NCBI GenBank assembly: GCA_017439965.1
Contig: JAFSID010000051.1
Span: forward strand, 33,232 to 97,231
DNA length: 64,000 nt
Direction of reading: 5' to 3'
Origin: Clostridia bacterium
Lineage (GTDB): Bacteria; Bacillota; Clostridia; Oscillospirales; SIG627
Under the pieces are notes generated by a model. That model was not told the origin of the DNA. It was given only the letters and a program-made list of their open reading frames with translations, and ran no database searches. Shown here in pieces: positions 2,056 to 58,607 of this stretch (its first letter is position 1; the number at the start of each line of letters is the position of its first letter). The position numbers and the translations under genes were made by a program.

Positions 2056-2068
2056 GAGAGGATTAAAA

Positions 2069-3379: not shown

Positions 3380-3380
3380 A

Positions 3381-5006: not shown

Positions 5007-5121
5007 TAAGGCTCGACGTATGAGCTGTTCGTGAAAACACAGCGTTTTAATTATATCTTGAGATTGTTATAAAACATCAAAAAAACAATTAAAAAAACAT
5101 TAAATTATAGCAAGGAAGGTA

Positions 5122-5895: not shown

Positions 5896-5907
5896 GGAGG
5901 GATAAGC

Positions 5908-11600: not shown

Positions 11601-14600
11601 TTGGTACGGCGAGAATCAGTGTCAGCATAGAGCCCGATGAGCGTTATCTGGGCAATTCCAACTGGCTTGATATTAACGTTGAATATCATCAGCTTCCCAG
11701 CGGAGTTACTTATACCGTAAGTGATAGAAATAAAAACGGATGGTACCGTGATGAAATGAGAATAGAGGCTCCGGCTGGTTATCTTATCAGCTATCATAAC
11801 GAGCTTGATACTAACGATTGGTCAGAGGTGATAAAAAGAGACATAGAGGGTACAGAGAAGCCTGAAATATTCTTTAAGCATGAAACAACAGGTGCTATTA
11901 CAGATAGTGTTGTTGTTGAAGAATATCAAATGGATAAAACTGATCCCGAGGTTATCGATGTTAAATATGAAACTCCGATAATGAAAACTATTGCAGAAAA
12001 GCTTTTTGGCTTTTCTGCTGATGGTAAAGTAACTGTGACCGTAACCGCAAAGGATGAGCTTTCGGGTATTGAACGTATTGAATATTCGCTTGACGGTATC
12101 GAATATGTGACACTCATTGACGATTTATCCGATACAGAAGGCGTATTCAGCAGTGAGTTTGTAATTGATTCACAGTACAGAAACGAAATTATTTACAGAA
12201 CCATTGATAAGGCGGGTAGGTATTCTAATAATTATAAGGACGGAAGCACCATAATAATTGATAAGATTTCTCCCGAATTGGAGATTTCATATCTTTACAG
12301 CTATTCCGATAAAGATGAAAGCGAAGCCTTTAACAGAAAGGATAGCAACGGTATTGTTTATACCAATGCCGATAAAGTTCTTGTTCAGCTTAAATTAACC
12401 GCAGACAATTTTGATCTTCTTGAGTCGGTTGACAATCTTCCTGTTGTAAATCTTTGTAAGATTGGCGAGGCGTCAGAAGGGGTTAAGCTTACATGGAATA
12501 CCGAAGAATCCACAAACATTAATATTGCATCCTTTGAAATTGAGGAAGAAGGAGATTATGTAATAACCGTTGATGAGTTTACAGATTTTCTTGACAGGAA
12601 GATTGATGCTTACAGCCAAGAAATACATGTAGACAGAAATGAAGCTGAGTTTAGCGAATTTGTGTTCAGCGGTGAAGTTAAGTACGATGACCAAAACACC
12701 GGTCGCAAGTATTATGAGGATTCTCAAACCGTAACAGTTGAAATTGATGAGCATAGCTTTGATGCAAACGGCTTTGAGGTTTCTTTAGTGGCGAAGGATT
12801 ATGCGGGTAATGACATTGTCGTTTCCGACTACACCGAGCTTTTCAAAAATGCTGCTTGGGAAAAGGAAGGCGATAAGTATACAGCAAGCTTTGTATTTGA
12901 CAAAGAAGCAAATTATACACTTCAAGTAAAATATACCGACCTTGCAGGTAACGAGTCAAGTTCCTCTGAATATAAGTTTACTGTTGACGGAACCAAGCCT
13001 GCTCAGCCTCGTATATATCTCGATAGGACACCCTTTGTAACAAAGGTTCTTTCCCAAATAACCTTTGGCTTCTTCAAGAGCCCTTTGAGTTTTACGGTTG
13101 AGTCAAGCGACCTTGTTGCAGGCGTAAAATCTATAAGGTACGCCTACGTTGGTACAACAGGTGTTCTCGAGACGGGTGAAGTTAATGTTTCAGAAGAAAT
13201 TACTGCAAAAACAGATAGCAGCGGCGTTGTAAAGATAACATTTGAAATTCCTGGAATCACTGATGATCCTGCAAACTCAGAGTTTCACGGTAAGGTTAGT
13301 GCGGTTGCATACGACTATTCGGGCAATGACGAATCCTCCGACGGATGCGTATATTATTATGATGGTGAAAGCAGTGTGCCTAAAAAGCTTAATACTGTTG
13401 TAACCGATAATATAGAGCCTGAGAGAACAGTTGCCTTTTCTGAGCCTAACAGAATACTCACGGCAGACCTTTCAGACGACGTTGACAAATATGAAGAGAC
13501 TGACAATGTTATTCTTTACTATAATAGGACAGGTGAGAATAACAATAATGCTACCGTAACAATCACAATTACCGAAGCCAATTTCGATGAAAATGATGTA
13601 AGCGTAAAGGTAAATTCAGAAGAATATAACAAGATTGATAAAAGCAATGTCAACTGGAGTGTTCAGGGCAACGTGGCAACGGGAAGCTTCACTCTTGAAG
13701 AACAGGGCGATTATACTGTAACCGTTGAGTATACCGATGCTTCCAGAAATGATATGCCAACGTATATTTCACAGAAAATTGCCATAGACCGCACAAAGCC
13801 CGAGATTGAAATATTCTTTGATCCTGCGGACGTTACGAGCGAAGAGCCCGAGAAAGCAGTATACGACAAGTATTTCGACGAAAGCCGTACGGCAAAAATT
13901 GTGGTTACCGAGCATAATTTCCGTCCCAACGAGATTGTTGCGACTGTTGACGTGACTGATTATTACGGCAATGTGCTCAATCCCGCGGACCACCAATACG
14001 AGACCTATTCCCAGCTCTTCACTGAAGCGTTGAAAAATGCGGAATGGGCGGTTTGCGATAATAATCCCGATAAGCATTATGCTGAGATTGACTTCGTGGA
14101 TGAAGGCTGGTACAATCTCAAGGTTGATTATACAGACATTCTCGGAAATGAAGCAGAGCAGGCTGTTGCAAAGGAATTTGTAATTGATGGGTCTGTGCCT
14201 GAGGTTTCAATCTCGCAAGATGAAAGCTTCATAAATAAGATTGGCTCAACCATCTTGTTCTATAACGCAAGTCCTACCGTGACAATTAAAGTTCAGGATA
14301 ATATTTCGGGTATTGACAGTATTCACATTGATGCGGAAAGAAAGGGTAACGTTAATGCCAATAGCGTTGTATACCCGTCAGGGCTTGTGCTGGAAGCAAA
14401 CGGCGTAAAGAGAAGCGGAGACGAGGGCTTCATTGACCTTGAAAAGCTTACTGTAAAGGCTCCTGAAAATACGGAGGAGTATCTTGAAATCTCCTTCAAG
14501 ATACCTCCGCAGTTCAACGGCACGGTTAAGGCTACCGCTGTAAATATGTCAGGTGGTCAGGGAAGCAGCGCTGGTGAGCATACTGAGTATACTGTCGTGG

Positions 14601-17600
14601 TCGATACCTTATCCCCAAAGATTGAGGTTAAATATACGGGCGATTACGTAGGCAAGGTAAGATACGACGGAGACCTCGGAGAGCGCTTCGTATATTCTGA
14701 TACCGTAACCGCAAATCTGTACGTAAATGAGGCAAACTTCCAGTACGATATAAACGACATCACGGTTATAAAGAACGGTAAGGCTGCACAGGCAGGAGTA
14801 GATTATACCACAAGCATATGGGGTACGGGCAGATACTTAAGCGAGTATGCCAAGGTATTTAAGTTTATAGAGGACGGAGATTACAAGCTCTCCTTCTCCT
14901 ATATCGACTACGCGGGTAACTCTATGAGCTATACCGACTCGTTCAATTCAACGGGAAAACGTTCGTACGTTTCCAAGACCGTTACCGTAGATAAATCCAA
15001 CCCCGTTTACACGGTAACCTACGACAACAACAAGGTTATAAACACGATTGACGGTGTTGAGTATTACGATGACGTGCGTACGGCAACCATCGAGATACTT
15101 GAGCACAACTTCAATCCCACCGCAGTTGACTTTAAGGTGACTGCAAAGGATTCGGGCGGTAAGACCGTTACAGAATACAAGTATCCCACGCTTAAGACTA
15201 TGAGTGAATGGAAGCGTTCGGGCGATACCTGGACTGCTACCGTTGCATTTGATTGCGACGCAAATTATACCGTAGAGCTTGCATACAAGGACATTGCGGG
15301 AAATGAGCTCGTAAATTCCGAAAACGGCGAAAAGGGTAACTATATCAAGACGTTTGCGGTAGACCGCTCGGCTCCGTACGATCTTAAGATTGAGTACCTT
15401 GAGCCCTCGGCACTTGAAAGGCTTATTGATACGGTATCCTTCAGATTCTTCAATTCTACCGCAAAGGTCAGAATATCCGCTGAGGATATAACCTCGGGTA
15501 TTCAGCGCTTCGAATACAGCTATAAGCTTAGCAACGGCGTCAGCGACATAAACGCGGAGCTTATCGATAAGGCTATTGAAAAGGCTGAGATAACCCAGGA
15601 CGGAAACAGATCCTACGCTACCTTCGAGATTCCCGCAGAGCTTCTTGGAGAAAACAATCAGTTCAGAGGCAACGTATGCTTTACGGCGTATGACTATTGC
15701 CTGAACGGAGTAGATAAGAATGATGAAGCTGTTACCGTTGTTGACTCGGTAACGCCTAAGCTCAACGTAGCGTATGCTCCTGCTGATGCGGGTGTTTCCG
15801 TAAGATACGTGGATGCTTCGCTCAAGGATACCAACAGCTTTGCAAACGCTGTTCAGGCATTCTACGGCGGCAAGGTCAAGGTTACCTTGAGCCTTAACGA
15901 AGCAAACTTCTTTGAGGGCGCCAAGGATGGCAACGAAATCGTTCACGAGCTTGGTATTCTTTTGACGGAAACCGATAACGAGGGCAACACCGTTAAGCTT
16001 GAATATCTTCCCAAGGGTGCAGAGCAGATGTTCTCTGATGAGACCTCTGAAACAAGAAGCATTGTATGGAGCAGTGACAAGGATATGCACACCGCAGTTC
16101 TTGAGCTTTCTCACGATGCCGATTATAAGCTTGAGATTAAGTATACCGACTATTCCGACAACGATGCGGAAATATCCTCCGACGATAATTCGTCAAAGAC
16201 CGCAGGAGTTTATACCTCAAAGCTTATAACCGTTGATAACACCGATCCCGTTGTTGAAATCACGTATTCCAACAACGACGTCAGCAAGACCGTTGACGGC
16301 AGAAGGTATTATGACGCTGAGCAGATTGCAACCGTAACCGTTAAGGAGCACAATTTCCGCGCGGCTGACGTTAACGTTGACTTAATCGCCAAGAATATTC
16401 TCGGCGATAACGTGGAGGTTGCGGATTTCGATTCTCAGCTTCGTGATGACGCAAGCTGGAAGCATTATAACAGCAAGGGCGAGCTTGTCGCAAAGGCTGT
16501 GGACGGAAACGTTCACGTTGCAGAGCTCAAGCTTACCGAGGATGCAAATTATTCTCTCGACGTTGAGTATGATGACCTGTCAAAGCGAGTATCCGTTGAC
16601 AAGGCTCCCGAGCTGTTTACGGTTGATACTACCGCTCCCGTAAAACTCAGCGTTGAGTACAACGAGCCTAATATGTGGAACAAAATACTTGAGAACATCA
16701 CTCTCGGCTTCTATAACGCTCACGTTACCGTTACGGTTTCCGCAGAGGATATCACCTCGGGTATTGATCACTTCATTTACAGCTACATAAACGTTGAAGG
16801 CGCAAGTGCGGTCAACGCTCAGCTTATCGAGCAGGCTATCGAGAGTGCCGATATAGTATATAACGGTGCGACTGCCGTTGCTGAATTTGCTATTCCCAAG
16901 GACGCTATCGAGCAGCACAATCAGTTTAACGGTACCATTGAGTTTACCGCATACGACCGAAGCCTTAACTCAGGCAAGCTTGTAAATAACGAGGTAATAA
17001 TCGTCGATAACATCAAGCCCGAGGCTAACGTAACCTTTAATGAGCCGGTACAGACTGTAAACGGCATTCGTTACTACAATTCGAATATAAACGCAAGCAT
17101 AATCGTAAACGAAGCAAACTTCTACAGTGAGGACGTTGTTGTCAGCATTACGAGAAACGGTGCATATTATGCACCTAATATCTCATGGACCGATACCAGC
17201 GCCGACGTTCACAGAGGTGCGTTTACTCTTACCGAGGAAGGCAGCTATACCATACGTATTGACTATACCGACCGTTCCTCCAATAAGATGGATACTTACG
17301 TTTCCGAGCGTATTGTCATTGATAAGGTTATGCCTGAGGTCCATATTTCAAACGTAAAGGCAAATTCGGCAAACAAGGACGAGATTTACGGATTTACCGT
17401 AACCGTCAGAGACGATAACGCAGATATTAACGCTATCAATACCGTTCTTACCGCTGTTATGAGAGCTGAAGACGGTACCTACGAGACCAAGGACATCCCC
17501 TTGGGTGACGTGAGAACAGTTTCTGTCGGAACCTCTTATTCATACGTTGTAGAGAATCTTGAGGCAGATGCGGTATATACCATAACCTCAAGTGTTAAGG

Positions 17601-18475
17601 ATATGTCCGGCAACGAGAATACGAAAATCCTTCTCGACGACGGAAACGAATACGACGAGGTTAAATTCTCTATTAACCGAAATGGCTCTACCTTCTCAGT
17701 AAACGGCGAGATTGAAAGAATCGTTGACGCATATTACGTTTACAGTGTTGATGAGGATATCGTGATTGAGGAGATTAACGTTGACCCCATTGAAAACTAT
17801 ATCGTAAGAATTAACGGCAACGACCTTGTTGAAAATACCGATTACACCAGCGTCGTGACAAGCAACGAGGGTGAGTGGAGTAAGAGAAGCTATATCGTAA
17901 GCAAGGATAAGTTCGCGGGTGAAGGCGAGTATGACGTTATGATTGAGTCTGTTGATAAGACCGAAACCACAGCGTACAGTGATATCAAGAAACTTAAGGT
18001 TGCTTTTGTTGTAGACAGAACGGCTCCCGTCGTTACAATAAGCGGTCTTGAAAGCGGCGGAAGATATCAGGTCGAGGAACAGACTGTAACCGCAATTCCT
18101 ACTGACGAGGGAGGAAAGCTTGATAGCTTCAAGGCAGTGCTTCTCGATGATGACGGCAAGGAGGTCAAAACCTTCTTTGAGGCATCGGGAACCGAGCTTG
18201 TTGAATATCTTGAGGCTAACGAAGGAAAGATAACCTTTAACGTTCCTGAAGGAATTGAGCATAGCGTTCGTATTATCTGTAACGATAGCTCTGTAAATTC
18301 CGAAAATTCAGCTAACGTATACGACGTAGTATTTGACAAGGTTACCGTATCACAGAATCGACTGGTTATGTACTATGCTAACAAGCCCTTGCTTTACGGC
18401 AGTATAGGTACTTTGGCAGTGGCGGCAGGCGTTGCAGTCCTTGTCATAATCAAAAAGAAAAAGAAAGTGGCATAA
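8621..18475 (+). CDS. giant (3,284 aa) Ig-like-repeat cell-surface protein / putative adhesin
   Basis: AAGGAG RBS and a signal peptide. More than 15 modules begin with D-x-[TS]-x-P-x(3-5)-[IV]-x-[YF] and carry E[HA]NF and YTD..GN motifs. C-terminal TM helix plus KKKKK tail. Confidence 0.85.
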   Translation: MITKEGTASFITRVSALFLCLAMLLGVVPTSLFSVMAMDVVEKLATVSTITDGGVVNNPDGADVNVTYNGVTLEWAEADLSIGRPIDGWWVGVKVTAPDNLVKETDFVEEGVDKVTYRRIDENGDGADRSFWYQQSSDKSVEETERYVDMWLHVNEEKLNNARHNGGYVTYKYEFNWNNDSEYEQTLTINIAPNLVLEKEGESKYPSSDIGTVETISDGLSVSGDSTAHYVQVSNTAPVVLDWMEKDTSLNINADGWWMGIKVIAPTNDLDVLKESRYQVASDESWSAAKSFYDSKSSADDDSSQYISLWGLLSEDAVDNAVLNNEKLSYTWRFDWDNDGVYEQLVTLVVDPEEVTLVRGSNEEFGGVEAITEAQIRGSGTASVTVKSGNLNLNWDEADESIGRYKRSWWVGAMVYAPTGIDLTEENDVKYQSKKHGGEWSADKSFWANQDSPVSADTHYMGVWAGLDRDVVEAAAEAGEDIVYEWRFDWNRDGVFEQTVSYVVDADTVVLNRYDREDIVFTKPAESFSIWSGEGTYTVAASCTSEGDIVYSIDSDKCPEGTSIDSNGVVTFSKPGKITVRAEIPADDFYNSVSEEITFEVVRNKFEGLAFVKPESKLTTTYEKGLTFTNVIDEATSGGGSFTYSIAEQADLSGATDKTVAIIDAATGVLTIYRTGNVYVVATRQQDDKYDAASVTYSLEICKGTQSLEFENKPVEEGKPIEITYKPGLKYTNVIKNNKTKATYAITETCDINNNKLVDGDVAVIDTKTGELTVSRSGIITVTATCPSDDNYQDATAYYKLAINKADQTNFGFSSELDVDGDGKVDEKDISETNGNAEYVITYNDFDNSFVKLAAGGQISGNITYEIADQKYLDNSPATSDSLVAEINEDSGLLTVYRSGKILVRATKKGDDCYNDVTAEYTLTVNKCAQTIEFWDNEASVSSITRLYGIREYTPVIKFSGSGAVTYSISPNKIGADIDEATGVVTFKNSDEKVGTARISVSIEPDERYLGNSNWLDINVEYHQLPSGVTYTVSDRNKNGWYRDEMRIEAPAGYLISYHNELDTNDWSEVIKRDIEGTEKPEIFFKHETTGAITDSVVVEEYQMDKTDPEVIDVKYETPIMKTIAEKLFGFSADGKVTVTVTAKDELSGIERIEYSLDGIEYVTLIDDLSDTEGVFSSEFVIDSQYRNEIIYRTIDKAGRYSNNYKDGSTIIIDKISPELEISYLYSYSDKDESEAFNRKDSNGIVYTNADKVLVQLKLTADNFDLLESVDNLPVVNLCKIGEASEGVKLTWNTEESTNINIASFEIEEEGDYVITVDEFTDFLDRKIDAYSQEIHVDRNEAEFSEFVFSGEVKYDDQNTGRKYYEDSQTVTVEIDEHSFDANGFEVSLVAKDYAGNDIVVSDYTELFKNAAWEKEGDKYTASFVFDKEANYTLQVKYTDLAGNESSSSEYKFTVDGTKPAQPRIYLDRTPFVTKVLSQITFGFFKSPLSFTVESSDLVAGVKSIRYAYVGTTGVLETGEVNVSEEITAKTDSSGVVKITFEIPGITDDPANSEFHGKVSAVAYDYSGNDESSDGCVYYYDGESSVPKKLNTVVTDNIEPERTVAFSEPNRILTADLSDDVDKYEETDNVILYYNRTGENNNNATVTITITEANFDENDVSVKVNSEEYNKIDKSNVNWSVQGNVATGSFTLEEQGDYTVTVEYTDASRNDMPTYISQKIAIDRTKPEIEIFFDPADVTSEEPEKAVYDKYFDESRTAKIVVTEHNFRPNEIVATVDVTDYYGNVLNPADHQYETYSQLFTEALKNAEWAVCDNNPDKHYAEIDFVDEGWYNLKVDYTDILGNEAEQAVAKEFVIDGSVPEVSISQDESFINKIGSTILFYNASPTVTIKVQDNISGIDSIHIDAERKGNVNANSVVYPSGLVLEANGVKRSGDEGFIDLEKLTVKAPENTEEYLEISFKIPPQFNGTVKATAVNMSGGQGSSAGEHTEYTVVVDTLSPKIEVKYTGDYVGKVRYDGDLGERFVYSDTVTANLYVNEANFQYDINDITVIKNGKAAQAGVDYTTSIWGTGRYLSEYAKVFKFIEDGDYKLSFSYIDYAGNSMSYTDSFNSTGKRSYVSKTVTVDKSNPVYTVTYDNNKVINTIDGVEYYDDVRTATIEILEHNFNPTAVDFKVTAKDSGGKTVTEYKYPTLKTMSEWKRSGDTWTATVAFDCDANYTVELAYKDIAGNELVNSENGEKGNYIKTFAVDRSAPYDLKIEYLEPSALERLIDTVSFRFFNSTAKVRISAEDITSGIQRFEYSYKLSNGVSDINAELIDKAIEKAEITQDGNRSYATFEIPAELLGENNQFRGNVCFTAYDYCLNGVDKNDEAVTVVDSVTPKLNVAYAPADAGVSVRYVDASLKDTNSFANAVQAFYGGKVKVTLSLNEANFFEGAKDGNEIVHELGILLTETDNEGNTVKLEYLPKGAEQMFSDETSETRSIVWSSDKDMHTAVLELSHDADYKLEIKYTDYSDNDAEISSDDNSSKTAGVYTSKLITVDNTDPVVEITYSNNDVSKTVDGRRYYDAEQIATVTVKEHNFRAADVNVDLIAKNILGDNVEVADFDSQLRDDASWKHYNSKGELVAKAVDGNVHVAELKLTEDANYSLDVEYDDLSKRVSVDKAPELFTVDTTAPVKLSVEYNEPNMWNKILENITLGFYNAHVTVTVSAEDITSGIDHFIYSYINVEGASAVNAQLIEQAIESADIVYNGATAVAEFAIPKDAIEQHNQFNGTIEFTAYDRSLNSGKLVNNEVIIVDNIKPEANVTFNEPVQTVNGIRYYNSNINASIIVNEANFYSEDVVVSITRNGAYYAPNISWTDTSADVHRGAFTLTEEGSYTIRIDYTDRSSNKMDTYVSERIVIDKVMPEVHISNVKANSANKDEIYGFTVTVRDDNADINAINTVLTAVMRAEDGTYETKDIPLGDVRTVSVGTSYSYVVENLEADAVYTITSSVKDMSGNENTKILLDDGNEYDEVKFSINRNGSTFSVNGEIERIVDAYYVYSVDEDIVIEEINVDPIENYIVRINGNDLVENTDYTSVVTSNEGEWSKRSYIVSKDKFAGEGEYDVMIESVDKTETTAYSDIKKLKVAFVVDRTAPVVTISGLESGGRYQVEEQTVTAIPTDEGGKLDSFKAVLLDDDGKEVKTFFEASGTELVEYLEANEGKITFNVPEGIEHSVRIICNDSSVNSENSANVYDVVFDKVTVSQNRLVMYYANKPLLYGSIGTLAVAAGVAVLVIIKKKKKVA

Positions 18476-23926: not shown

Positions 23927-24046
23927 ATTTTCACCCCGCTTTTGCTTTTTCTTGAGTTAATTCTAACACGGAATGTGTACTAAAAACTGTACAGTAAACG
24001 GCAAAAGCCTCCCCGAGCTTCAAATCCTTGCGATAAAAATAACGAG

Positions 24047-24093
24047 GATAGGATTTGAAGCTACGACATCCTGCTTCAAAGCAGGCACGCTTA
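24047..24093 (-). pseudogene. degenerate tRNA-Pro-like fragment (anticodon arm to T arm only)
   Basis: About 85 percent identical to 58651-58697 of the intact tRNA-Pro. It lacks the D arm and acceptor stem, and its anticodon loop is shortened. Confidence 0.55.
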
Positions 24094-24149: not shown

Positions 24150-24194
24150 TGGTGGAGACAACTGGAATCGAACCAGTGACCTCTTGCATGTCAA
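24150..24194. repeat. attL: 45-bp copy of the tRNA-Val 3' end
   Basis: Identical to 58563-58607. Confidence 0.9.
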
Positions 24195-24257: not shown

Positions 24258-24280
24258 AAATTACCGACTTTTTACCGACT
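24258..24280. repeat. arm-type site pair (TTACCGAC x2), attL arm
   Basis: The 23-mer aaattaccgactttttaccgact is identical to 58425-58447. Confidence 0.6.
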
Positions 24281-24380
24281 AATATGATGCAAAATAATTG
24301 TAAAAACAAGCCTCCGAGGGAAGAACTACCCGTTGCGAGCTGCCAGAGAACAGCTTTACCTTCCTTAGCCACGCTAAAAA

Positions 24381-24403
24381 AACGGTAGGAAGCTCCTACC
24401 GTT
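24381..24403 (-). terminator. intrinsic terminator of the prophage late operon
   Basis: Hairpin aacggtagga-agc-tcctaccgtt flanked by A7 and T7 runs, directly after the TAG stop of the 2,477-aa ORF. Confidence 0.75.
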
Positions 24404-24408
24404 TTTTT

Positions 24409-27400
24409 CTATTGCCTTGTTGGAAAATTGTATTCTCTTTTAGGCAGATTAAATTTTCTCTCGGGGAGATTGTATTTCGGCTGTGTGCCGCTCTCCGAGG
24501 CTTTGCCGTCATTGAAGGCTTGAGCGATTCCCGAGGCATAATCGCCGTAGGGATTATTTTTCACCGAGCTTGAGCCCGTGGCTATCTGCCACAGAGCCGC
24601 CTTCTGCTGAACCGTTAGTGATATTTCGTTATCCCCTCCCGGCAAGACAAAGCCGTAGTCCGTCGGAAACAGACCGTCAATGGCTTTCTGGTATTCGGCG
24701 GCGGAATAGCTGCCGTTACCGTTCGTATCGTACTCGCTCATATTAAGCTTGAGAGCGGTAAACGCCTTCAAGGGAACGTTATTATCGTAGCAGAGGTCGA
24801 GCTTCTTGCTTTGAGCTTCCTCAGTGACAAGAGCCTTGAGAGCCTCAAGAGTCGTTTCCTCGGGATAGCCTGCCTGAGCTACCGCATCCCACTTCTGAGC
24901 CTGCGACACACTCGTTTTATCACCGAGAGGCTCAAGGCTTACTATCGCGCGGGTAAGAGAGGTACACACGCTGTCCGAAAGACCTGCGCCCGCAAGCTTA
25001 TCGTAGGTCGTTTTTGCCGAGCCCTTTGAGGTCAGCTCAGGATTTACAGCCTCAGCCGCCATCGTATAGGCAAAGTCAAGGCGGTCAGCATCATCGGATA
25101 TACTGTCAGCCTCACCGTAAAAGCCCTCTCCCTCTCTTCTGAAAGTATCCTGACCGTCGAGAGCCTTTTTATAAAGCTCGTTTCTCAATGCATATTGAGC
25201 CTCAAGCATTTCCTTTTTCTCCTTGTCGGAAACGGAGCCGTCCGCCTCGATGCGACGGATCTCCCTGTTAATCTCCTTGAGGAGTGTATCCTGCTTTGAC
25301 CAATAGCGAGACATAAGCTCGTAGGTCGGCGTTGCATCGGTACCGTTGGCTGAGTATTCAGCATCCTTTTTAGCCTCGTAATACCTGTCGGTATAAGCAT
25401 TCGACGGCAAGGTATTAAGCGTGAAATTAGCCGAGAAAATATTATTTTCCGCCGCAGGAGTCATCATAGGAAGAACAACGTCTGCAAGCACACCGCCGTA
25501 CTGGTTAAGCAAATAGTTAATCTTTTTCGGGCTCAGCCTGAGAGTCCGTCCGAGCCATTTGCTTACCTCGTCGGTTCTTGCGTCGTACCTCTCGGCAACG
25601 GGCAAGCTCTGTAAGGACTGCGACTCAATATCCGAGCCGTACCAGGTCTCACCGGGGTTCTCGTCATCAAACAGCTTTGCCTGTACCAAGGGCATAAAGA
25701 AGTTATTCGTCAAGGGATTTGCGGGGCCTATCTGATTCACAATGTGAGAGGCGACGCCCTTAACGTCAAAGCCCTCTCCCCCAAAGGCATCCGCTACCTC
25801 GTCGGCAGTATAGCCGAGTGCGGAGTAGAATCTGCCTCGCGGTATCTTTATCCACTTTCCGTCATCGTACTTGAAAAGGAAGTAATTTGCCTTATCCTCC
25901 TCACGCACCGCCTCCCAGTCCTCGTCATCCGAGTAAAGAAGTGCGTTAAGTGCAAACGGCGCAAGTCCTAAAATTGCGGTTTTTGTGATAAGCCTGAACC
26001 AATCCTTATACCCCTTCGTCTCGGAAAGATTTCGGATTATCTTGTCAAAGCCCTGTATACTCGGATTCCAGAACGGAACGGCATAGGTATTAAGCGCCTT
26101 GCTCCACTGACCGCTTCTGCCGAAATTGGTTGTAATTTCGGCGGCGTTATACATAGCCTCGGCAAGAACGTCGGTCGAGGCGTTTTCCAAGCCTCCGTTT
26201 TTATTGACGGTAGCGATAAATTCGGCAAGTCGGGGAAGCTGCTCGATAAAGCTGCTTACCGCCTCAACCTTATCAAGACCTTTTTTGATAAGACCCGTAT
26301 TTTCGTCTATCATCCCCGTCGAATAGTCGTAATTGGAATTGTGAAGTCCGCCGAGTGCCTGATACCTTTTCCAGTATTCTCCGTTATTGGCAATTTCCGA
26401 AATTGCGGTAGGATAGGCTTTTGCAAACTCCGAAAGGTCCTTGGAATTGATTCCCGCATCCTGAATATCCTTTACGCCGTTTCGTATCCAGAAGGCAGGG
26501 TTATAGCCCGTGATAAGACGTTTGTACACGTTGTTTGCGGCTGCAAGTCCGCGCAGTCCCAAATTGCTTGAGTTGGGCTTGGGCGTAAGCGCCGACACCG
26601 CCTCAAACAGCGAATCGTTGACCTCAAGCTCCCATTTCTTGCCCTTGTTATAGACGGAGAAAACGTTCGCCGTGTTAAGCTCCTCGATTCCCGCTTCTTC
26701 ATCAATATAGCTGCTCGGGTTAAAATCCGCTCCCGCCTCGGCGATGCTCGTGATATACCTCTTGGTCTCGGGCATATTGGCATAGCGGAAGAGCCTCATA
26801 CCGAAGCGGTTCTTCGTTCCCTCTCGGACTACCTTCTCAGTGAGCTTGGATAGTGCCTGCTCAAGCTCCATCAGAGTTGACGTGCCTCCCGTTGCCCTGC
26901 CGATAGCCGTGCTTGTGTCGGCTCTGTTGAGCTGTCTGCGCGAGCCCGTGTGTTCGGTGACGCGGTAGGTCGGAACGTAATGAGGGTAAACCGATTTAAG
27001 ATAATCGGCGTCCTCCTGTGTTATAAGTCCCGAATCAACACGGTACTTCATCAGATTGTCAATGTATCCGTATACCTCTTGTGCAAGAGCCTCAAATTCG
27101 GGATGCTCGTCAAGCAGGTCTTGTACTGCCTGCTCGCTTCTTTCTGCCGTTATGAGCTCGCCGTTTTCATCGGCACCGAAAACAGACTTGTTCTGTCTGC
27201 CCGACAAGGTGTCTCGGTTATTGAGAAGCTCTACGTATTCCGCCGCAATATCTGACAATACATCATTGGGATTATACGCCATATTGCGAAGCGTTGCATC
27301 GTCGAGCATGCTTATTTCGGGGTGCCTTATCCTGAAGTCTCTGACCGCCTCCGCCGCCTCTTGTATTGCCCTCTCGTTGCGGTATGACATTCGGGATATG

Positions 27401-30400
27401 TTGTGCTTATGGAACAGATAATCCTGAAAGTCGGTGTAATACTGCTTGCCACGGCTTTTTATGGGAGCAAAAATATCCTTGAGGCTTTTGCCCGTAGCGT
27501 TGCCGTTAACGTCGGTCGCCACCTTGGACATCATATGAGTGGCGATATTGTGCGAGCTTCTCGCCTCGTTGTAGTAGGCGTACAGATATTTGTCCTTAAC
27601 GGTCTTGGCTATATCCGATATCGCCTTGCCCGAATCGACAAGCTTTCTGTACAGCAGATCTCCCGTATCGGCAATACGGCTTCTGAGCCCTTGCTTATTC
27701 CTTTTGGGGTCGGCACTTATTCGCCTCTGCGGCTCGGTCGCAACACGCTCTTTTTGCCCTAACTCCATTAACCCCGAAAGATTCATTTCGGGCGAGTCGA
27801 AAAAGCTGTCTGCTACGCTCACATCGGAATCGGTCTCAGCCGTATCCGCCTCTCCGTCGCCATTATAGTAAAGGTCAATGAGCGGTGTACCCTGATTATC
27901 TGCTGACGTATAGCTTTGCTCAGAAAGGGAAAAATTGTTATTGACATTTCCGTCAGGAGATGTTATCATATTTTCAGACATAGAGTTGATGTATGGATCC
28001 ACCGTAGCATTATTGCTACGACCCATAGAAAAACTGATTTTTTCAGTTCTAGACTCTGTGTCTTTTGTTTTTAGCAATTCAAATGCTTTCCCTTTAGGTG
28101 ATAATACTCGTAGCGAGTGAACTCTACCTTTACCAAACATTACAGATACAACAATATTTCCCTTTTCGCCATTAAGAATTGCAGGTGCTGCAAATGTTAT
28201 TGATACCGTTCCTTGTCCTTTGTGATTTTTATGACCGGAAATTATTTTTCCTTTTTTTATTACATAAGGCGAAGCAATAGCCGCTGCACGTTCCGGATCT
28301 GTTTTTGCATAATTTTCAATTGATGAGATTGCATCTTCGTCAAAAAGGATGCTACCCAAGCCTTGTACATCAATCTTGTTTCCGAAAGATTTTTTTAACG
28401 TATCTTCAAGAACTTTATAATACGGTCTTTTATCCTGCTTGCTATAAGTCACGTCTACGACCGGTTGCATTGAATTAACTTCGTCAAGGTGTGCAATCAA
28501 TTGTTCTTTTAACGTACTGAAATTGTCAGGATCCCAGTTTATATCTAAGTCACGAACGTCTTTTTGAGTGAGACTATATCTAACCTCCCCCGAATTATTC
28601 TTAAGCTTAGAGTTCAAAGCCCTCTCGAGTCTATGCTGAGCTGTTAAAAGCTTACGAGCCTCGGGGGTATTTGCTTTTATAAGGGAAATTACGTGCTTTA
28701 TTTCGCTCAGGATACGCTGTGCGACGTTGGGATGCTTTGCGGCAAGGCTATTGACAAAGCCCTCATCGGAAAAGAGGTATTCTCCGACAAGCTCGGCGGT
28801 AAGCTCACCGTTGATATCGGCATTTTCGACGGCGCTGTACGTATCGGTTATTTCCTGAAGCTTAGCTTCGTAAGTGCCGATCTGCTTTGCGTAACCGATA
28901 ACAGCCTTTTGTAAGCTGTCATAATGCTGGGAGCCCTCGAGCACGTGGGTTATTTCGTGACCGATAACCGACTGCCACGCCTTGCGGGATTCGGCGTTTA
29001 TAAGGACAGTTTTGCCCGTATACACACCGTTAACGAAGCGATTGCCGACAGAAAAGCCCGATTCCTTGAGCCTTGCATTATCGACAAACTCAAATTCAAC
29101 ACCCGTTCTTGCGTAAAGCTTGGCGGCAAGGTCTACAAGCCGATGAGACGCCTCGGTGTCATTGAGCACACCACTTGCAATTGCCCTCTCGACAATATAT
29201 CGCTCCTTACCCTCATATTTTGTCGGGTCATCGGTAAAGGCTCTGTTGGACGCCGTCTTTTCCCGATACTCCTCCGTGACGTATTCCTCGGCTGTCACAA
29301 ACGGAAGCGGGTCATTCTGAACAGTGTATGGAAGCTGTGACGAGCTTTCATCCGTTTGTATGTAATAATCAGCATTGTCAGACTTGACAGATGCATCGGG
29401 TTGTGTTATAGTTTTATTAGAGTGTGGTTGATACACGTCTTGAACGTACACCTGGGGGATTTTGTTTAAATCATTCAGAAATTCAACTACACTCTGTTTT
29501 TTTGCAATACTTTCAGGCAACTCAGGTAAATCTGGGATATCAAACATCCCGGTTTTTATCATTTGCTTATTTACCAGCAAGGATTCATTACCGTACTTTT
29601 GAGTTACTTGTTCTAAATAATATACAAGATTGTCTTCCATTTTTTTGACATAAACAAGCCCTGTCTTTCCATCTTTGCGATTTACTACAATTACCTTATC
29701 GTAATTTTCCACTAACCAAGGAATTAATTTTATATCATCAGCGGCGATTGGATATTTTTCGGATGTGTTTTCTCCGTGCGAGTTCTTTATATGACGAATG
29801 TCATTATCTCTAAGTGCATGGGAGTATCCTTCCAAAGATATTTCATCTGACACATCCGATATTAATCTTTCAGAAGGTATAGCATATTTTTTGTATTCCT
29901 GTGTGTTTTGATTTTCAAAAGCCGCATCAACATAATCATTAATGTTTTTTTGTGTTACGCCAAATTTATAATTAACATTGTTAAAATTAGCATTTATTAT
30001 TGCATTAGATACAGATTTAACAGCAACAGGCACACCAGACATTAAACCTGCAGACAACAACGTCACGCCGCCGACGTCAACTACGTATTTTTTAGCATAA
30101 TCGAACAGCGTTGCTTTAGTCGCTTCTGTTCTATCCATGCCTTCGGCAACGTAGCGGTCAATCGACAATTGAAAATCACTTAAATCACCCGATATTATTC
30201 CGTCTGCAATATCGTTTGCGGCTTCGGTACCGAGTTCACCTATCAGTTCGGTTTTTAAATTGTTTTTGAGGTATTTCCAGCCGCTCTGCTTTAAAGTATC
30301 ACCGTCAAACAATGCATCAAAAGATTTACTTTCAAAGAATATTTCGGCAGCAGCGTTTACAATACCGAGACCAAAGGCTTCGTCATCAGACAAGCCTTTT

Positions 30401-31842
30401 TTCTTTGCGTCAATAACTGTACTTCCGAACCCGCCTGCAACCTGTGTACCCAAGGTTATATATTTATTACCGCCGCCGATAAGCATAGCCATACCCTGCT
30501 CACCGATATTTATGCCTGCGTTATATAAAAACTGTCCTACGGGGCTGTCAATTTGTTCTCTTACGGCGCCGTATGTCGTATCTTTCCTGTTTTTATGAGT
30601 ATATAAAGCGTCGTTTTCGTCAATAGTACCGTCGTCAACATAGTCCGCGATTGTTCCAATACCTGTCGCCATATTTGTCAGAGGACTTTTTATAATTTCA
30701 CCAAATGTAGATTTGACGGGATGTGATTTCGCATATTCTTCATCTTTTACCCTTTGCTGTTCATTTCGGCGCATCTGAAGATTATCGCTGAGATAATTGG
30801 CATATTCAATAGCCGCATTTTCCCCTTTGGTTGCCCACAAATAATTAAAAATGGCTTTTTCATCATCGGTAAAATACAGATTCTTGTCATCGTCTAACGT
30901 ATTAAAAACAGCAGTATCGTTTACAGTTATATGTTCGTAGGCATCTTTGTCACCGTTTACGAGGTTGTAAATATGCTGGTTTTCTGTGCCATTTGTAATA
31001 ACAGACGTTGTAATCGGTGTACCGTTATAAGATCCGTTTACAATTCTATATGAAACGTCTTTCTTTTTATAAGTGCTCTTTTCTTTAAAATCGGAATTAC
31101 TTATAAGGTTATAATAAGAAAAATATTTGTTCCAGTCCTTCTCTTCATCAAGAAGATCTGACTTGTTTTTCAACTCTTGAATTTGATTTTCAAGAGTTTT
31201 CTTTTGCTCGGCTTGAGATTCGTATTTTTTCAGCTCATCCGGATTACCGGAAGGATATTTTTTATATGCTTCGATTGCCGTTTCAGGTTCTCCGAGCTTG
31301 TTTTTTTCGTTCTCAAGAGTCTCAATTTGCGAGGTAATTTGCTTTTTTTCTTTGTCAAAATCAGCATCGGTACGTATAGTGCTTCTCCAATTGTTGAAAT
31401 TCGTGTTATAAGAATTGATTCCGCTGACGGTCGCTATATCTAACGTGTTTTCAAGGCTTTTTATTCCTGTTGCAGAAGCTTCGCGTCCTATCATTTCCAT
31501 TACGTCTGATTGACGCTTCGGGGTGCTGTACAATGCGCCCATAGTTCTTCCAAATGCACGATTCTCGTCATCCTCCCATTTTTGAAAATTGGGAGAATAA
31601 TACGGTTCTTTAGCTTTTGATGCAGTTTTCAAAGCATCAAGGCGTGCAAGACCTCTTTTTTTAATTCCCGTGGGGTTGAATTCTGCAGTTTTGGTTGTAT
31701 CGTTTAACTTTTTTAACTCTTCCAAACGGGCGAGCCCCCTCACCACAGATTTAGTACCTGTGGTAGAAGGAGTTGTTTTTATCGTGTTATTTTTTGCGGT
31801 GTTTTTTGTAGAAAGTGCTTTAAGTCTTTCGAGTCCTTTCAT
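24409..31842 (-). CDS. polyvalent-type giant protein (2,477 aa) with PBECR-like nuclease motif, zincin HExxH peptidase motif, LPD-like modules and an EF-hand loop
   Basis: Uninterrupted ORF with a GGAGG RBS. Motifs DIRHIKNSHGEN, VIGHEITHVLEG, GHKNHKGQGTVSITFAAP and DTNGNGSYSAAE. Confidence 0.8.
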   Translation of the reverse strand: MKGLERLKALSTKNTAKNNTIKTTPSTTGTKSVVRGLARLEELKKLNDTTKTAEFNPTGIKKRGLARLDALKTASKAKEPYYSPNFQKWEDDENRAFGRTMGALYSTPKRQSDVMEMIGREASATGIKSLENTLDIATVSGINSYNTNFNNWRSTIRTDADFDKEKKQITSQIETLENEKNKLGEPETAIEAYKKYPSGNPDELKKYESQAEQKKTLENQIQELKNKSDLLDEEKDWNKYFSYYNLISNSDFKEKSTYKKKDVSYRIVNGSYNGTPITTSVITNGTENQHIYNLVNGDKDAYEHITVNDTAVFNTLDDDKNLYFTDDEKAIFNYLWATKGENAAIEYANYLSDNLQMRRNEQQRVKDEEYAKSHPVKSTFGEIIKSPLTNMATGIGTIADYVDDGTIDENDALYTHKNRKDTTYGAVREQIDSPVGQFLYNAGINIGEQGMAMLIGGGNKYITLGTQVAGGFGSTVIDAKKKGLSDDEAFGLGIVNAAAEIFFESKSFDALFDGDTLKQSGWKYLKNNLKTELIGELGTEAANDIADGIISGDLSDFQLSIDRYVAEGMDRTEATKATLFDYAKKYVVDVGGVTLLSAGLMSGVPVAVKSVSNAIINANFNNVNYKFGVTQKNINDYVDAAFENQNTQEYKKYAIPSERLISDVSDEISLEGYSHALRDNDIRHIKNSHGENTSEKYPIAADDIKLIPWLVENYDKVIVVNRKDGKTGLVYVKKMEDNLVYYLEQVTQKYGNESLLVNKQMIKTGMFDIPDLPELPESIAKKQSVVEFLNDLNKIPQVYVQDVYQPHSNKTITQPDASVKSDNADYYIQTDESSSQLPYTVQNDPLPFVTAEEYVTEEYREKTASNRAFTDDPTKYEGKERYIVERAIASGVLNDTEASHRLVDLAAKLYARTGVEFEFVDNARLKESGFSVGNRFVNGVYTGKTVLINAESRKAWQSVIGHEITHVLEGSQHYDSLQKAVIGYAKQIGTYEAKLQEITDTYSAVENADINGELTAELVGEYLFSDEGFVNSLAAKHPNVAQRILSEIKHVISLIKANTPEARKLLTAQHRLERALNSKLKNNSGEVRYSLTQKDVRDLDINWDPDNFSTLKEQLIAHLDEVNSMQPVVDVTYSKQDKRPYYKVLEDTLKKSFGNKIDVQGLGSILFDEDAISSIENYAKTDPERAAAIASPYVIKKGKIISGHKNHKGQGTVSITFAAPAILNGEKGNIVVSVMFGKGRVHSLRVLSPKGKAFELLKTKDTESRTEKISFSMGRSNNATVDPYINSMSENMITSPDGNVNNNFSLSEQSYTSADNQGTPLIDLYYNGDGEADTAETDSDVSVADSFFDSPEMNLSGLMELGQKERVATEPQRRISADPKRNKQGLRSRIADTGDLLYRKLVDSGKAISDIAKTVKDKYLYAYYNEARSSHNIATHMMSKVATDVNGNATGKSLKDIFAPIKSRGKQYYTDFQDYLFHKHNISRMSYRNERAIQEAAEAVRDFRIRHPEISMLDDATLRNMAYNPNDVLSDIAAEYVELLNNRDTLSGRQNKSVFGADENGELITAERSEQAVQDLLDEHPEFEALAQEVYGYIDNLMKYRVDSGLITQEDADYLKSVYPHYVPTYRVTEHTGSRRQLNRADTSTAIGRATGGTSTLMELEQALSKLTEKVVREGTKNRFGMRLFRYANMPETKRYITSIAEAGADFNPSSYIDEEAGIEELNTANVFSVYNKGKKWELEVNDSLFEAVSALTPKPNSSNLGLRGLAAANNVYKRLITGYNPAFWIRNGVKDIQDAGINSKDLSEFAKAYPTAISEIANNGEYWKRYQALGGLHNSNYDYSTGMIDENTGLIKKGLDKVEAVSSFIEQLPRLAEFIATVNKNGGLENASTDVLAEAMYNAAEITTNFGRSGQWSKALNTYAVPFWNPSIQGFDKIIRNLSETKGYKDWFRLITKTAILGLAPFALNALLYSDDEDWEAVREEDKANYFLFKYDDGKWIKIPRGRFYSALGYTADEVADAFGGEGFDVKGVASHIVNQIGPANPLTNNFFMPLVQAKLFDDENPGETWYGSDIESQSLQSLPVAERYDARTDEVSKWLGRTLRLSPKKINYLLNQYGGVLADVVLPMMTPAAENNIFSANFTLNTLPSNAYTDRYYEAKKDAEYSANGTDATPTYELMSRYWSKQDTLLKEINREIRRIEADGSVSDKEKKEMLEAQYALRNELYKKALDGQDTFRREGEGFYGEADSISDDADRLDFAYTMAAEAVNPELTSKGSAKTTYDKLAGAGLSDSVCTSLTRAIVSLEPLGDKTSVSQAQKWDAVAQAGYPEETTLEALKALVTEEAQSKKLDLCYDNNVPLKAFTALKLNMSEYDTNGNGSYSAAEYQKAIDGLFPTDYGFVLPGGDNEISLTVQQKAALWQIATGSSSVKNNPYGDYASGIAQAFNDGKASESGTQPKYNLPERKFNLPKREYNFPTRQ

Positions 31843-31851
31843 TTTGCCTCC

Positions 31852-33495
31852 TTATGCAGCACCTAACATATCAAGTATCATGTCAAGTTCTTCTTCGGTA
31901 ATCTGTTTTTTCTCAACGTACCACTCTAAATTAGCAATTTGCTGAGGAGAAAGTGTTCCACCGTTTGTTTGTACATCCCGAAGAGTTTGATTCAACACCG
32001 CTTGAGCGTATTGTCCAAGATGAGGTTTTATCGTATATCCAAAATCTCTTAAGGTGCTCTCGTCTGCGCCGTTATCTATAAGTTCCTGCCATATCTCGGG
32101 AGATATCTGTCCGTTTGCATCGGCAAGACCGTTGTTTATGATATAGAAATTCCAGCCGTCGGGAGTTCCCGCCGCTATTGCTCCGTCCTCGTAAAGCTTC
32201 TGAATATATTCGTTTGAATATCCTGCATTGAGAAGCGCGGAGATGATGCTGTCGTCTATATACCCGCCCTTTACTGCCGAGAGAGCGTTGGATGCGCTCA
32301 TTGTGGGAGTTGACGCCTTATTCTGTGACTCTTTCACCGCGGCAAGCAAGGAATCCGCGTCAGCCTGCGATATTCCCGCAACCTCAAGCAGCTCGGGGCT
32401 TACCGCACCGCCGTTTTGCATGATTGTAAATGCCATTTCGCGTGCGGCAGCTTTTTCGCTTGCCGTCTGCTCGCGCTCAAGAGCGGCTTTGTTATATTCA
32501 AGAGTGTCATTCCGGTTAAGAAGTGCCTGAAGAATTCCAGCATAACTGTCAGCGCTTTTAATCGCGTAATCAAGAGCACTCTGTGCTTTGGCAGTATCAC
32601 CCGTCAGTCGAGTGTCGGTAATTGCTTTGTCAAGTTCTGACAGCGTGTTGATTCTTTCCTGCTCTCCTTGTCTTAACGCATCAGCGTAGCTTGTTTCGAG
32701 TCCGAGCTGTGAGGATTCGGACATACCTCCCGTTATACCCTGAGATGCAAGTCGCTGATTTATATTCTTTTGTGACATCATCTTGTCGCGGTACAACTGA
32801 CGGAATAAATCCGCGTAGCTCTGATTGGTAGACCCCTTTTGTGCTGCGAGATCATTTATTGCTCTCTCGACGGAAGCGTCTGTTATCTTATTTGCCTGCG
32901 CCAATGCTTGAGCATACGTGGAATTGTTACCCGAATATATTCCCTTAAGGTTATCAATAAGGGTATTGCTGTCGTTCTGATGTTCGGCAATATACTTTTC
33001 TGCCGCCTGCGTTATTGAATCGTTTGCATATTCTGCAAGCGACGGATTGGCAGCTATCATCTGATTTCTCAATTTAAGATAGGTTTGAATTTCACCGGCA
33101 GACGCGCCACTCAAAATACCGTTTGATATAAGCTTAGAATAATCGACGCGGCTTCCATCGTCGGTCATTGTATTTTCATAATATTTTAAGCCGTCTCCAG
33201 CTGATGAGCTTACACCCACAGTCGGAGTTCTTGGAGCTGTAACGGTTGTCGTTTGCGACGTCGAGGAAAAGGCAGGAGTCGCATCCTTTTTCTGTCCGGT
33301 AGTAACGTCGTAAGCCTGCGAATAGGTCATTGTAGAGCCTGCAAGCGTAGGCTCTACACCTCCGTACATTTTATTGATTTTGGCGGCGCGTTCTTTTTCC
33401 GCTTGCGCTCTTTCTGCCGTTGAAATGTTAGTGTTCGACAATATTGCGCTGTAATCCTTATCGGGGTCGAACCCGAGTGCTGCATTATATGCCAT
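31852..33495 (-). CDS. hypothetical late protein (547 aa), candidate internal virion/ejection protein
   Basis: Start abuts the amidase stop (TAAATG) with a GGAGGTG RBS. Ala/Gln-rich helical composition and no recognisable motif. Confidence 0.55.
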   Translation of the reverse strand: MAYNAALGFDPDKDYSAILSNTNISTAERAQAEKERAAKINKMYGGVEPTLAGSTMTYSQAYDVTTGQKKDATPAFSSTSQTTTVTAPRTPTVGVSSSAGDGLKYYENTMTDDGSRVDYSKLISNGILSGASAGEIQTYLKLRNQMIAANPSLAEYANDSITQAAEKYIAEHQNDSNTLIDNLKGIYSGNNSTYAQALAQANKITDASVERAINDLAAQKGSTNQSYADLFRQLYRDKMMSQKNINQRLASQGITGGMSESSQLGLETSYADALRQGEQERINTLSELDKAITDTRLTGDTAKAQSALDYAIKSADSYAGILQALLNRNDTLEYNKAALEREQTASEKAAAREMAFTIMQNGGAVSPELLEVAGISQADADSLLAAVKESQNKASTPTMSASNALSAVKGGYIDDSIISALLNAGYSNEYIQKLYEDGAIAAGTPDGWNFYIINNGLADANGQISPEIWQELIDNGADESTLRDFGYTIKPHLGQYAQAVLNQTLRDVQTNGGTLSPQQIANLEWYVEKKQITEEELDMILDMLGAA

Positions 33496-57141: not shown

Positions 57142-57289
57142 AATAGTAAAAAGCTCTTTGTAAACAGTGTGGTAAAAAAACAAAAAATGAAACCCAAGAG
57201 GAAGTTTGATTGTATAGAATTACAAGGTGAATTATGACACGACGTTCGGACGGTCTCTGGCAGGAGTCTATTACCATAAGAGGTGCAAT

Positions 57290-58424: not shown

Positions 58425-58470
58425 AAATTACCGACTTTTTACCGACTTTTTTACGGTAAACCACGGTAAA
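58425..58470. repeat. arm-type sites in the attR arm (2 direct TTACCGAC plus 2 inverted TTACCG)
   Basis: The 23-mer is identical to 24258-24280 and is followed by acggtaaaccacggtaaa. Confidence 0.6.
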
Positions 58471-58562: not shown

Positions 58563-58607
58563 TGGTGGAGACAACTGGAATCGAACCAGTGACCTCTTGC
58601 ATGTCAA
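58563..58607. repeat. attR core (within the intact tRNA-Val)
   Basis: Identical to 24150-24194. Confidence 0.9.

Follow-up and report, generated by a model that had tools for sequence, protein, structure and literature searches.

A giant polyvalent protein of mosaic architecture encoded by the last late gene of a tRNA-Val prophage in a gut Clostridia genome

A single open reading frame (ORF) of 2,477 codons closes the late operon of a prophage in a Clostridia bacterium, and its product is a polyvalent protein that consists of a conserved frame (N-terminal repeats, a helical module A, a C-terminal core or C-core, and a C-tail) holding swappable cassettes in its middle. The gene lies within a 64,000-nucleotide stretch of contig JAFSID010000051.1 (GenBank assembly GCA_017439965.1; Clostridia, Oscillospirales, SIG627; positions 33,232 to 97,231 of the forward strand), hereafter the window, whose first base is position 1 for all coordinates given here. 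An earlier sequence-only reading of this DNA had placed the ORF at the end of a late operon and had called its product a polyvalent-type protein. The operon order and a duplicated attachment (att) sequence bear out the first statement, and matches to the curated hidden Markov models (HMMs) PBECR3 and LPD38 confirm the second. The element is probably a temperate, Pagevirus-like, short-tailed phage, integrated at tRNA-Val of a gut Bacillota genome. Considered together with experimental data on homologs, the protein is probably a head-packaged ejection protein, with a frame that would serve incorporation and delivery and a middle that would carry exchangeable effectors.

Mosaic Architecture and Cassette Exchange

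The module map (Table 1) was drawn from BLAST and HMM comparison against 283 homologs. In these proteins module A is followed by variable combinations of B, Z, and L, then by C (the C-core) and finally by T (the C-tail). The full A-B-Z-L-C-T set has one occurrence among the 283, the protein described here. PBECR3, a zincin-like domain, an LPD3-like cassette, and LPD38 are all found in the one ORF, which thus joins at least two unrelated effector-type domains.

The GC content at third codon positions (GC3) is 0.30-0.34 in the leader, module A, and PBECR3, 0.54 in the zincin-like domain, and 0.57-0.60 in the C-core and C-tail (C-core 0.60), with a low value again in the intervening LPD3-like cassette (Table 1). 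One homolog, P0079, is 97.5% identical to this protein over residues 1300-2477 (1,178 residues) and 89% identical over the zincin-like domain, and carries an unrelated segment of about 212 residues in place of residues 1095-1299. P0079 thus shows directly that a cassette has been replaced where the base composition changes. A near-identical protein, P0001, is also present in a public collection (99.96% identity by BLASTP, listed as 100%).

The Conserved Frame

All three [KR]GL[AE]RL-x2-LK repeats reported at the N-terminus by the sequence-only reading are present (chance expectation about 0.006), within a leader (residues 1-80) that is basic and probably disordered. The RGLARL motif sequence itself was found in this protein only. 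Duplication of a short N-terminal tag is more widespread: a duplicated 9-mer, counted when two copies agree at 7 or more of the 9 positions, occurs within the first 150 residues of 46 of 200 non-redundant homologs (P0005, P0015, P0018, P0033, and P0115 are examples), whereas three internal control windows each gave 2-3 of 200. In many cases the first copy begins at residues 1-10, and the sequence of the duplicated tag varies between lineages. The N-terminal duplicated 9-mer is a family trait, and a capsid-targeting or multivalent docking role is one candidate function for it.

Module A always comes first among the modules of the homologs (median start at residue 275). It accounts for the sole match of the protein in a PHROG scan, an unannotated family (PHROG 22978) over residues 161-651, and is modeled by AlphaFold2 (AF2) with a predicted local distance difference test score (pLDDT) of about 85-97. 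Hydropathy analysis gives a transmembrane-like segment at residues 590-608 in module A and a transmembrane-like helix at residues 1951-1969 in the C-core.

The C-core belongs to a very large family, with 5,774 matching cluster representatives at E <= 1e-3 and 1,374 at E <= 1e-30. In the best 150 matches listed, the module is C-terminal and the proteins are mostly of 1,500-4,400 residues, the shorter entries probably being fragments. The family is common in gut Bacillota genomes, and the best genome relatives of the C-core are about 44% identical. The earlier suggestion that the C-terminal 1,100 or so residues form the virion-incorporation or delivery part fits these data, as the same conserved module forms the C-terminal part of giant phage proteins by the thousand. 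An AF2 model of the C-core region, built from 63 sequences, reached a pLDDT of 76 and a predicted template modeling score (pTM) of 0.69. The model matches C-terminal pieces of about 1,000 residues in viral "large polyvalent protein" entries of BFVD at template modeling (TM) scores of about 0.5-0.6; methylase, RelA/SpoT, and lytic transglycosylase domains are among the N-terminal partners seen there.

The Pfam domain LPD38 covers only a fifth of the real unit, because invariant residues of the C-core fall upstream of it; these lie at residues 1622-1937 and include, among others, Y1622, P1624, N1788, D1792, E1867, N1926, Q1930, and R1937. The conserved C-terminal unit is thus about five times larger than the LPD38 model. 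The polar ones among these invariant residues (N1788, D1792, E1867, N1926, Q1930, and R1937), together with the motif [DE][VI]T[VT]NF[GK]R, lie at positions 25900-27000 of the window and hint at an unrecognised binding or catalytic site.

The C-tail module T ends a median of 36 residues before the C-terminus in homologs, and is also found in giant proteins that have no C-core. An EF-hand-like loop, DTNGNGSYSAAE, lies in the C-tail at 24694-24729 (residues 2372-2383) and has no Pfam support. Similar loops, of the form D-x-[DNS]-x-[DNS]-G, are present within the final 300 residues of 18 of the 283 homologs, compared with 1 in a control window, and many relatives carry DKD-x-x-GK-x-x-SGSKK repeats in the C-tail.

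The Middle Cassettes

The domain-by-domain HMM search placed PBECR3 and LPD38 above their cut-offs, and neither MPTase-PolyVal nor LPD3 gave a direct match. For PBECR3 (Pfam PF18812) the score was 47.1 bits against a cut-off of 30 (E 2.6e-12), and 49 bits on the sub-sequence. A peptide resembling the PBECR nuclease signature had been pointed out at 29767-29799. The family assignment stands; that interval covers only the last 11 residues of the peptide HALRDNDIRHIKNSHGEN, which spans residues 675-692 (nucleotides 29767-29820). H686 of the DIRH motif and H690 of the HG motif are conserved in at least 80% of 29 PBECR3 domains. The AF2 model of this segment is unreliable (pLDDT 25-45, without alignment depth). 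Multi-module alignments made with MAFFT stacked PBECR3 and LPD3 fragments on the wrong columns, and alignment depth was lacking for both domains because of this misplacement.

The HExxH motif that had suggested a zincin is HEITH, residues 962-966, and does lie at 28945-28959. Over 96 non-identical domains H962, E963, and H966 are 99% conserved, E1013 (28804-28806) is 100% conserved, and HExxH is present in 95 of the 96, so that the metal-site residues are the best-conserved positions of the domain. H962, E963, H966, and E1013, the last as predicted third zinc ligand, are thus assigned on conservation to a gluzincin-type metal site. In the AF2 model of residues 882-1082 (pLDDT 75-95) a helix at 896-913 and strands at 916-920, 939-941, and 945-949 precede a helix at 955-968 that holds HEITH and a helix at 1010-1025 that holds E1013. 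This order (helix, three strands, HExxH helix, Glu helix) agrees with the zincin core as described in the relevant passages of Iyer et al. (2017, J Bacteriol 199:e00245-17). Pfam gives a weak Peptidase_M48 match at the HExxH, and weak matches to this family were obtained in six members (best E 0.0048); Foldseek returned no PDB hit at E < 1 for a 976-residue multi-domain AF2 model. The domain is probably a zincin-like peptidase of an unmodelled family.

A block beginning GHKNHKGQG, residues 1203-1247, had been likened to LPD-type modules. Pfam LPD3 (PF18798) has no direct match in the protein at E <= 1. Residues 1103-1348 do align to residues 1719-1949 of the homolog P0051 (E 2e-19), in which Pfam places LPD3 at 1755-1853, and the counterpart of the block itself in proteins with a Pfam LPD3 call is GGHANHKAREKQTVTFAAPVELNG. 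The module is thus a putative divergent LPD3, recognised through an intermediate homolog only, and the LPD38 domain called by Pfam lies elsewhere in the protein.

Homologs with Experimental Data and Other Known Systems

Several phages encode giant proteins whose C-termini are matched by the C-core HMM: vb_24B_48 of the Stx phage phi24B, a giant protein of 933W type (3e-46), ORF B31 of an Stx1 phage (3e-46), gp69 of Burkholderia phage JC1 (8e-59), gp25 of PTXU04 (5e-68), a giant ORF of Vibrio phage 41E34.2 (4e-73), a giant ORF of Thalassomonas phage BA3 (5e-76), and gp20 of Page (1e-77). The statement in the sequence-only reading that experimental data on polyvalent proteins are scarce is partly outdated, as virion proteomics is available for two of these homologs and a knock-down phenotype for PTXU04 gp25.

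The phi24B protein vb_24B_48 (2,807 residues as deposited) was taken to be gp47 (2,811 residues) of a recent preprint, in which gp47 is abundant in purified virions by mass spectrometry and absent from the shell density in cryo-electron microscopy (cryo-EM); the authors list LPD5, LPD1, LPD38, and MuF-C domains and propose that gp47 is an encapsidated ejection protein (bioRxiv 10.64898/2026.04.10.717836). Like the protein described here, it is the giant terminal late product of a temperate short-tailed phage, adjoins att, and carries LPD38, and its C-terminal 730 or so residues are homologous to the C-core. It differs in that neither PBECR3 nor LPD3 is listed for it and that, among the module profiles, only the C-core matched; phi24B also infects a Gram-negative host and belongs to another capsid and tail lineage (T=9, GP4-like).

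The second homolog detected in purified virions is JC1 gp69, a Bcep22-like "DarB-like" protein of 4,515 residues for which 51 unique peptides were recovered from CsCl-purified virions (PMC9144972). Its C-terminal 820 residues are homologous to the C-core. It is, however, about twice as long, has methylase-like (YtxK) and helicase-like (HepA) matches, and is matched by the C-core profile only. PTXU04 gp25 is a putative polyvalent protein of 2,198 residues, classed as the product of a "Fit" gene, and its knock-down by CRISPRi-ART causes a large fall in plating efficiency (PMC11879866). Its gene is the last large one of the structural block, and the protein has a homologous C-terminal module (BFVD E 5e-22, TM 0.54), although PTXU04 is a virulent coliphage and the N-terminal content of gp25 differs. 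The closest cultured lineage is that of the Bacillus megaterium Pageviruses, podophages of a Gram-positive host that share both a C-core homolog (gp20, 1,679 residues) and the 619-residue virion protein described below. Page gp20 is shorter, has another cassette set, and is encoded upstream rather than downstream of the lysis cassette.

The polyvalent proteins of Iyer et al. (2017) resemble the present one in their several unrelated effector domains, late-gene context, and combination of PBECR, zincin-type peptidase, and LPD modules; the conserved frame is not mentioned in the passages of that paper that were consulted. The N4 virion RNA polymerase gp50 and P1 DarB are likewise giant, packaged in the head, and injected with DNA, and here the likeness is a functional analogy only. 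None of the six module profiles showed homology to N4 gp50 by hmmsearch or hhalign (probabilities < 5%) and Pfam found no RNA polymerase domain, so that a link to gp50 was rejected. Methyltransferase and helicase domains of the P1 DarB type were found in neither Pfam nor NCBIfam scans. In Clostridium clostridioforme prophages an 8-kb terminal ORF resembling LPD3 has already been noted (PMC11318856).

Position in the Late Operon and in the Prophage

As the sequence-only reading had stated, the ORF is uninterrupted, follows a GGAGG ribosome-binding site, and ends at a strong terminator just inside an att site. A chance ORF is ruled out by the run of 2,477 codons that no stop interrupts. The gene has no evident promoter of its own. 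The terminator has the form A7-CGGTAGGA-GCT-TCCTACCG-T7, with a 15-bp stem (-21 kcal/mol, z = -4.3 relative to shuffles). The nearby att core copy forms an exact 45-bp direct repeat with positions 58563-58607, the 3' part of tRNA-Val(gac); from shuffles, 0 matches are expected. Because of this repeat, and of the integrase and repressor genes at the far end, the prophage is placed at 24195-58562 (about 34.4 kb) with the giant ORF as its terminal gene. The ORF lies about 180 bp inside the att copy and makes up about 22% of the prophage. The junction beside it had been labeled attL; being distal to the integrase, it is attR by the lambda convention.

The minus-strand late operon starts with the small terminase, the large terminase, and a P22/SU10-like portal, followed by two unassigned ORFs of 292 and 310 residues at the expected scaffold and capsid gene positions (the 310-residue product is 66% identical to that of a gene at locus L008 with a weak Phage_capsid_4 Pfam match). 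The middle comprises an SU10-type adaptor, a 619-residue virion protein, a tail-fibre-like protein, and two small ORFs, and the end comprises holin_4_1, amidase_3, a 547-residue ORF (ORF X), the giant gene, the terminator, and att. The giant gene is thus encoded among virion and late genes, as the last of a terminase-portal-adaptor-tail-lysis operon. The 619-residue protein has homologs in the Bacillus megaterium Pagevirus podophages, where it is named "virion structural protein", and in human-faecal phage contigs. Related prophages in Oscillospiraceae metagenome contigs have the same order (capsid, adaptor, protein of about 615 residues, fibre, holin, endolysin, X, giant protein, host DNA), and because this order is kept in relatives, the place of the giant gene after the lysis genes is a lineage trait and not an accident.

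ORF X has no match to a Pfam or PHROG family. Its central part (residues 194-387) is 31-45% identical to the products at the same position in related prophages, and at another 12 genome loci an X homolog precedes the giant gene. ORF X may encode either another internal protein or a partner in assembly.

Two other identities for the giant protein were discarded. A polyvalent protein of a conjugative element is ruled out by the full phage morphogenesis module and by LPD38, which passages of Iyer et al. (2017) describe as restricted to phage-type polyvalent proteins. A tape-measure protein was rejected on the P22/SU10-type portal and adaptor, which suggest a podophage-like module, and on the Pfam and PHROG matches, which include no tape-measure or tail-tube family.

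Proposed Role and Alternatives

For this protein we infer packaging, ejection, a conduit role, and both enzyme activities. The gene would be transcribed together with the late genes, and the protein would enter the procapsid and leave through the portal and tail before or with the DNA. The frame, with its two transmembrane-like helices, could then aid passage of the genome across the envelope. In the new host the cassettes would act, the predicted RNase cutting host or defence RNAs and the predicted metallopeptidase either cleaving the polyprotein into working pieces or attacking host proteins. The phenotype of the PTXU04 gp25 knock-down argues that the conserved frame is a core infection component and not only a counter-defence accessory, and a core ejection protein is the more likely identity of the frame.

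Several observations weigh against this reading. Presence in virions and a requirement for plaque formation have been demonstrated for homologs only. The C-core and module A resemble no solved ejection protein or other PDB fold: searches of PDB sequences by phmmer and with profiles (whole protein, C-core alignment, and module A/zincin alignment) gave nothing meaningful, and the best Foldseek E values against PDB folds were 0.15 for the C-terminal AF2 model and 1.1 for the N-terminal model. This comparison extended to such ejection or virion proteins of T7 and N4 type as were present in the PDB copy, and it tied the folds neither to T7, P22, or N4 ejection proteins nor to known zincins. Because neither module has a fold counterpart there, the conduit role is argued from context only. 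The host is of Gram-positive type, as judged by amidase_3 and holin_4_1, so that the trans-periplasmic conduit model developed for coliphages may not transfer. At the prophage edge and past the lysis cassette, the gene occupies a place typical of an accessory "moron", though this position is kept in relatives. On the side of the effectors, the PBECR active site is given in passages of Iyer et al. (2017) as His plus Ser/Thr, and the Ser/Thr position of most PBECR3 homologs is Gln (QMIK) in this subfamily; RNase activity is for this reason plausible, not assured. The Pfam model of MPTase-PolyVal has no match at E <= 1 in the protein or in 16 homologous domains.

The experimental data on homologs bear on the main alternatives as well. 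One is that the protein serves counter-defence alone, after the manner of P1 DarB: although packaged and injected, it would be dispensable where no matching defence is present and would have no part in genome delivery. This is the role that Iyer et al. (2017) propose in the relevant passages; homologs are often annotated as "DarB-like antirestriction", and the effector-type domains (PBECR3, zincin-like) with their rapid exchange of cassettes look like an arms race. PTXU04 gp25, however, is needed for plaques to form on a laboratory host, the frame and gene order are conserved over thousands of phages while only the middle cassettes vary, and the Pfam scans found no methyltransferase or helicase domain of the DarB type; purely accessory cargo is accordingly judged unlikely. 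The phi24B data speak to an external location, in which a tail-associated or cell-wall-breaching protein would use its zincin-like domain to cut peptidoglycan or a surface layer at adsorption. The gene adjoins tail and lysis genes, its homolog in B. megaterium phage Page comes after a "lytic tail protein", and the phi24B authors suggest a peptidoglycan role for the peptidase domain of gp47 (bioRxiv 10.64898/2026.04.10.717836). Yet gp47 is abundant by mass spectrometry and invisible in external cryo-EM density, domain scans found no cell-wall-binding or known peptidoglycan-hydrolase domain, and an RNase domain that acts in the cytoplasm would have little purpose on the particle exterior, all of which makes an external role improbable.

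Detection of homologs in virions argues in turn against a protein that never enters the particle, whether a late toxin released at lysis in the manner of polymorphic toxins or a factor for lysogenic conversion or superinfection exclusion. Such a function would suit a gene beside att and past the lysis genes, and its nuclease- and protease-type modules resemble those of polymorphic toxins. The ribosome-binding site nonetheless abuts the stop codon of the upstream late gene with no separate promoter evident, and reading of the sequence, though no formal search was made, brought to notice neither a signal peptide nor a secretion domain nor an immunity gene next to it; a non-virion product is regarded as highly improbable.

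The head-packaged ejection protein remains the preferred reading, and an extension of it can be offered tentatively: short-tailed phages might use the frame generally as a plug-and-play chassis for protein delivery, with the frame as an essential ejection protein, its duplicated N-terminal tag as capsid-targeting signal, and the middle as effector slot. Effector cassettes would then be swapped by recombination between phages of different hosts, and the alternating GC3 blocks and the different cassette of P0079 would reflect recent exchange.

Feature Coordinates and Surrounding Sequence

Table 1. Positions in the window of the giant gene, its modules, and associated prophage features.
Feature	Position	Strand	Details
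Polyvalent-protein gene	24409..31842	-	2,477 aa, single unbroken frame; stop TAG at 24409-24411
Three N-terminal [KR]GL[AE]RL-x2-LK repeats	31627..31839	-	aa 2-10, 35-46, 63-72
Module A	29983..31395	-	aa ~150-620; all-helical, Gly-rich helices
PBECR3 predicted RNase domain	29596..29844	-	aa 667-749; contains DIRH686 and H690-G
Predicted zincin-like metallopeptidase domain (module Z)	28597..29211	-	aa ~878-1082 (module mapping: ~850-1100)
LPD3-like cassette (L)	27799..28536	-	aa 1103-1348; GC3 0.32
C-core (C)	25138..27765	-	aa 1360-2235; ~880-aa mostly helical module
LPD38 (Pfam PF18857)	25450-25926	-	aa 1973-2131; 86.6 bits against cut-off 27, E 3e-24
C-tail (module T)	24541..25056	-	aa 2263-2434; short helical repeats
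GGAGG ribosome-binding site	31847..31851	-	4 nt 5' of ATG, directly after TAA of upstream ORF
Intrinsic terminator hairpin	24376..24408	-	begins 1 nt past stop codon
ORF X	31852..33495	-	547 aa; between endolysin and polyvalent gene, also in related prophages
att core copy	24150..24194	-	45-bp duplicate of tRNA-Val 3' end
Tyrosine integrase	57227-58387		opposite prophage end from giant gene
CI/LexA-type repressor	55378-56025		far (integrase) end of prophage

Just outside the att copy lies a decayed tRNA-Pro-like fragment (24045-24092, minus strand), in which 41 of 48 bases match the intact tRNA-Pro (58640-58715) over its positions 20-68. An earlier integration or rearrangement at the tRNA-Pro/tRNA-Val locus may have left it behind. 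The tRNA-Pro/tRNA-Val junction had no exact match in a scan of GTDB genomes. Two tandem copies of the 11-mer AAAGTCGGTAA are found near the integrase end (58428-58449, minus strand), and near the end with the polyvalent gene (24261-24271, minus strand) AAAGTCGGTAA occurs once together with the near-copy TTAGTCGGTAA. All copies lie within the prophage and are candidate arm-type binding sites of the integrase. A 251-residue prophage protein (47182-47937, minus strand) matches REP_ORF2-G2P (PF23343, E 4e-12), a family whose name denotes a replication-associated protein (ORF2/G2P).

In the host flank, the plus-strand gene at 8621-18475 encodes a probable surface protein of 3,284 residues that contains bacterial Ig-like domains (Big_3_3, Big_13), and WG-repeat, DUF6382-FHA, and Ser/Thr kinase genes lie 5' of it (2030-7587). 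Among the homologous loci, L079 and L080 are two contigs of 40,887 bp whose matches are the same in identity and span (32%, query residues 200-870), and whose metagenome-assembled genomes are labeled Clostridia and Methanobrevibacter, respectively. If the two are the same contig, one bin is probably contaminated.

Significance

This protein falls in a class that dates from 2017, that curated HMMs detect, and for which homologs now supply proteomic and genetic support. Little is added here by way of discovery, because earlier reports already cover the class, the Pfam domains in it, and even terminal ORFs of 8 kb in prophages of Clostridia. What is added is the division into frame and cassettes, the compositional sign of recent exchange, the family-wide N-terminal tags, and the size of the C-core beyond LPD38. 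Polyvalent proteins are among the largest and least understood of phage genes, and the split of frame from cassettes yields concrete testable constructs. If the frame is indeed a general carrier, engineered phages could be loaded with chosen effectors, and the same property would help to explain how prophages of gut Clostridia overcome host defences.

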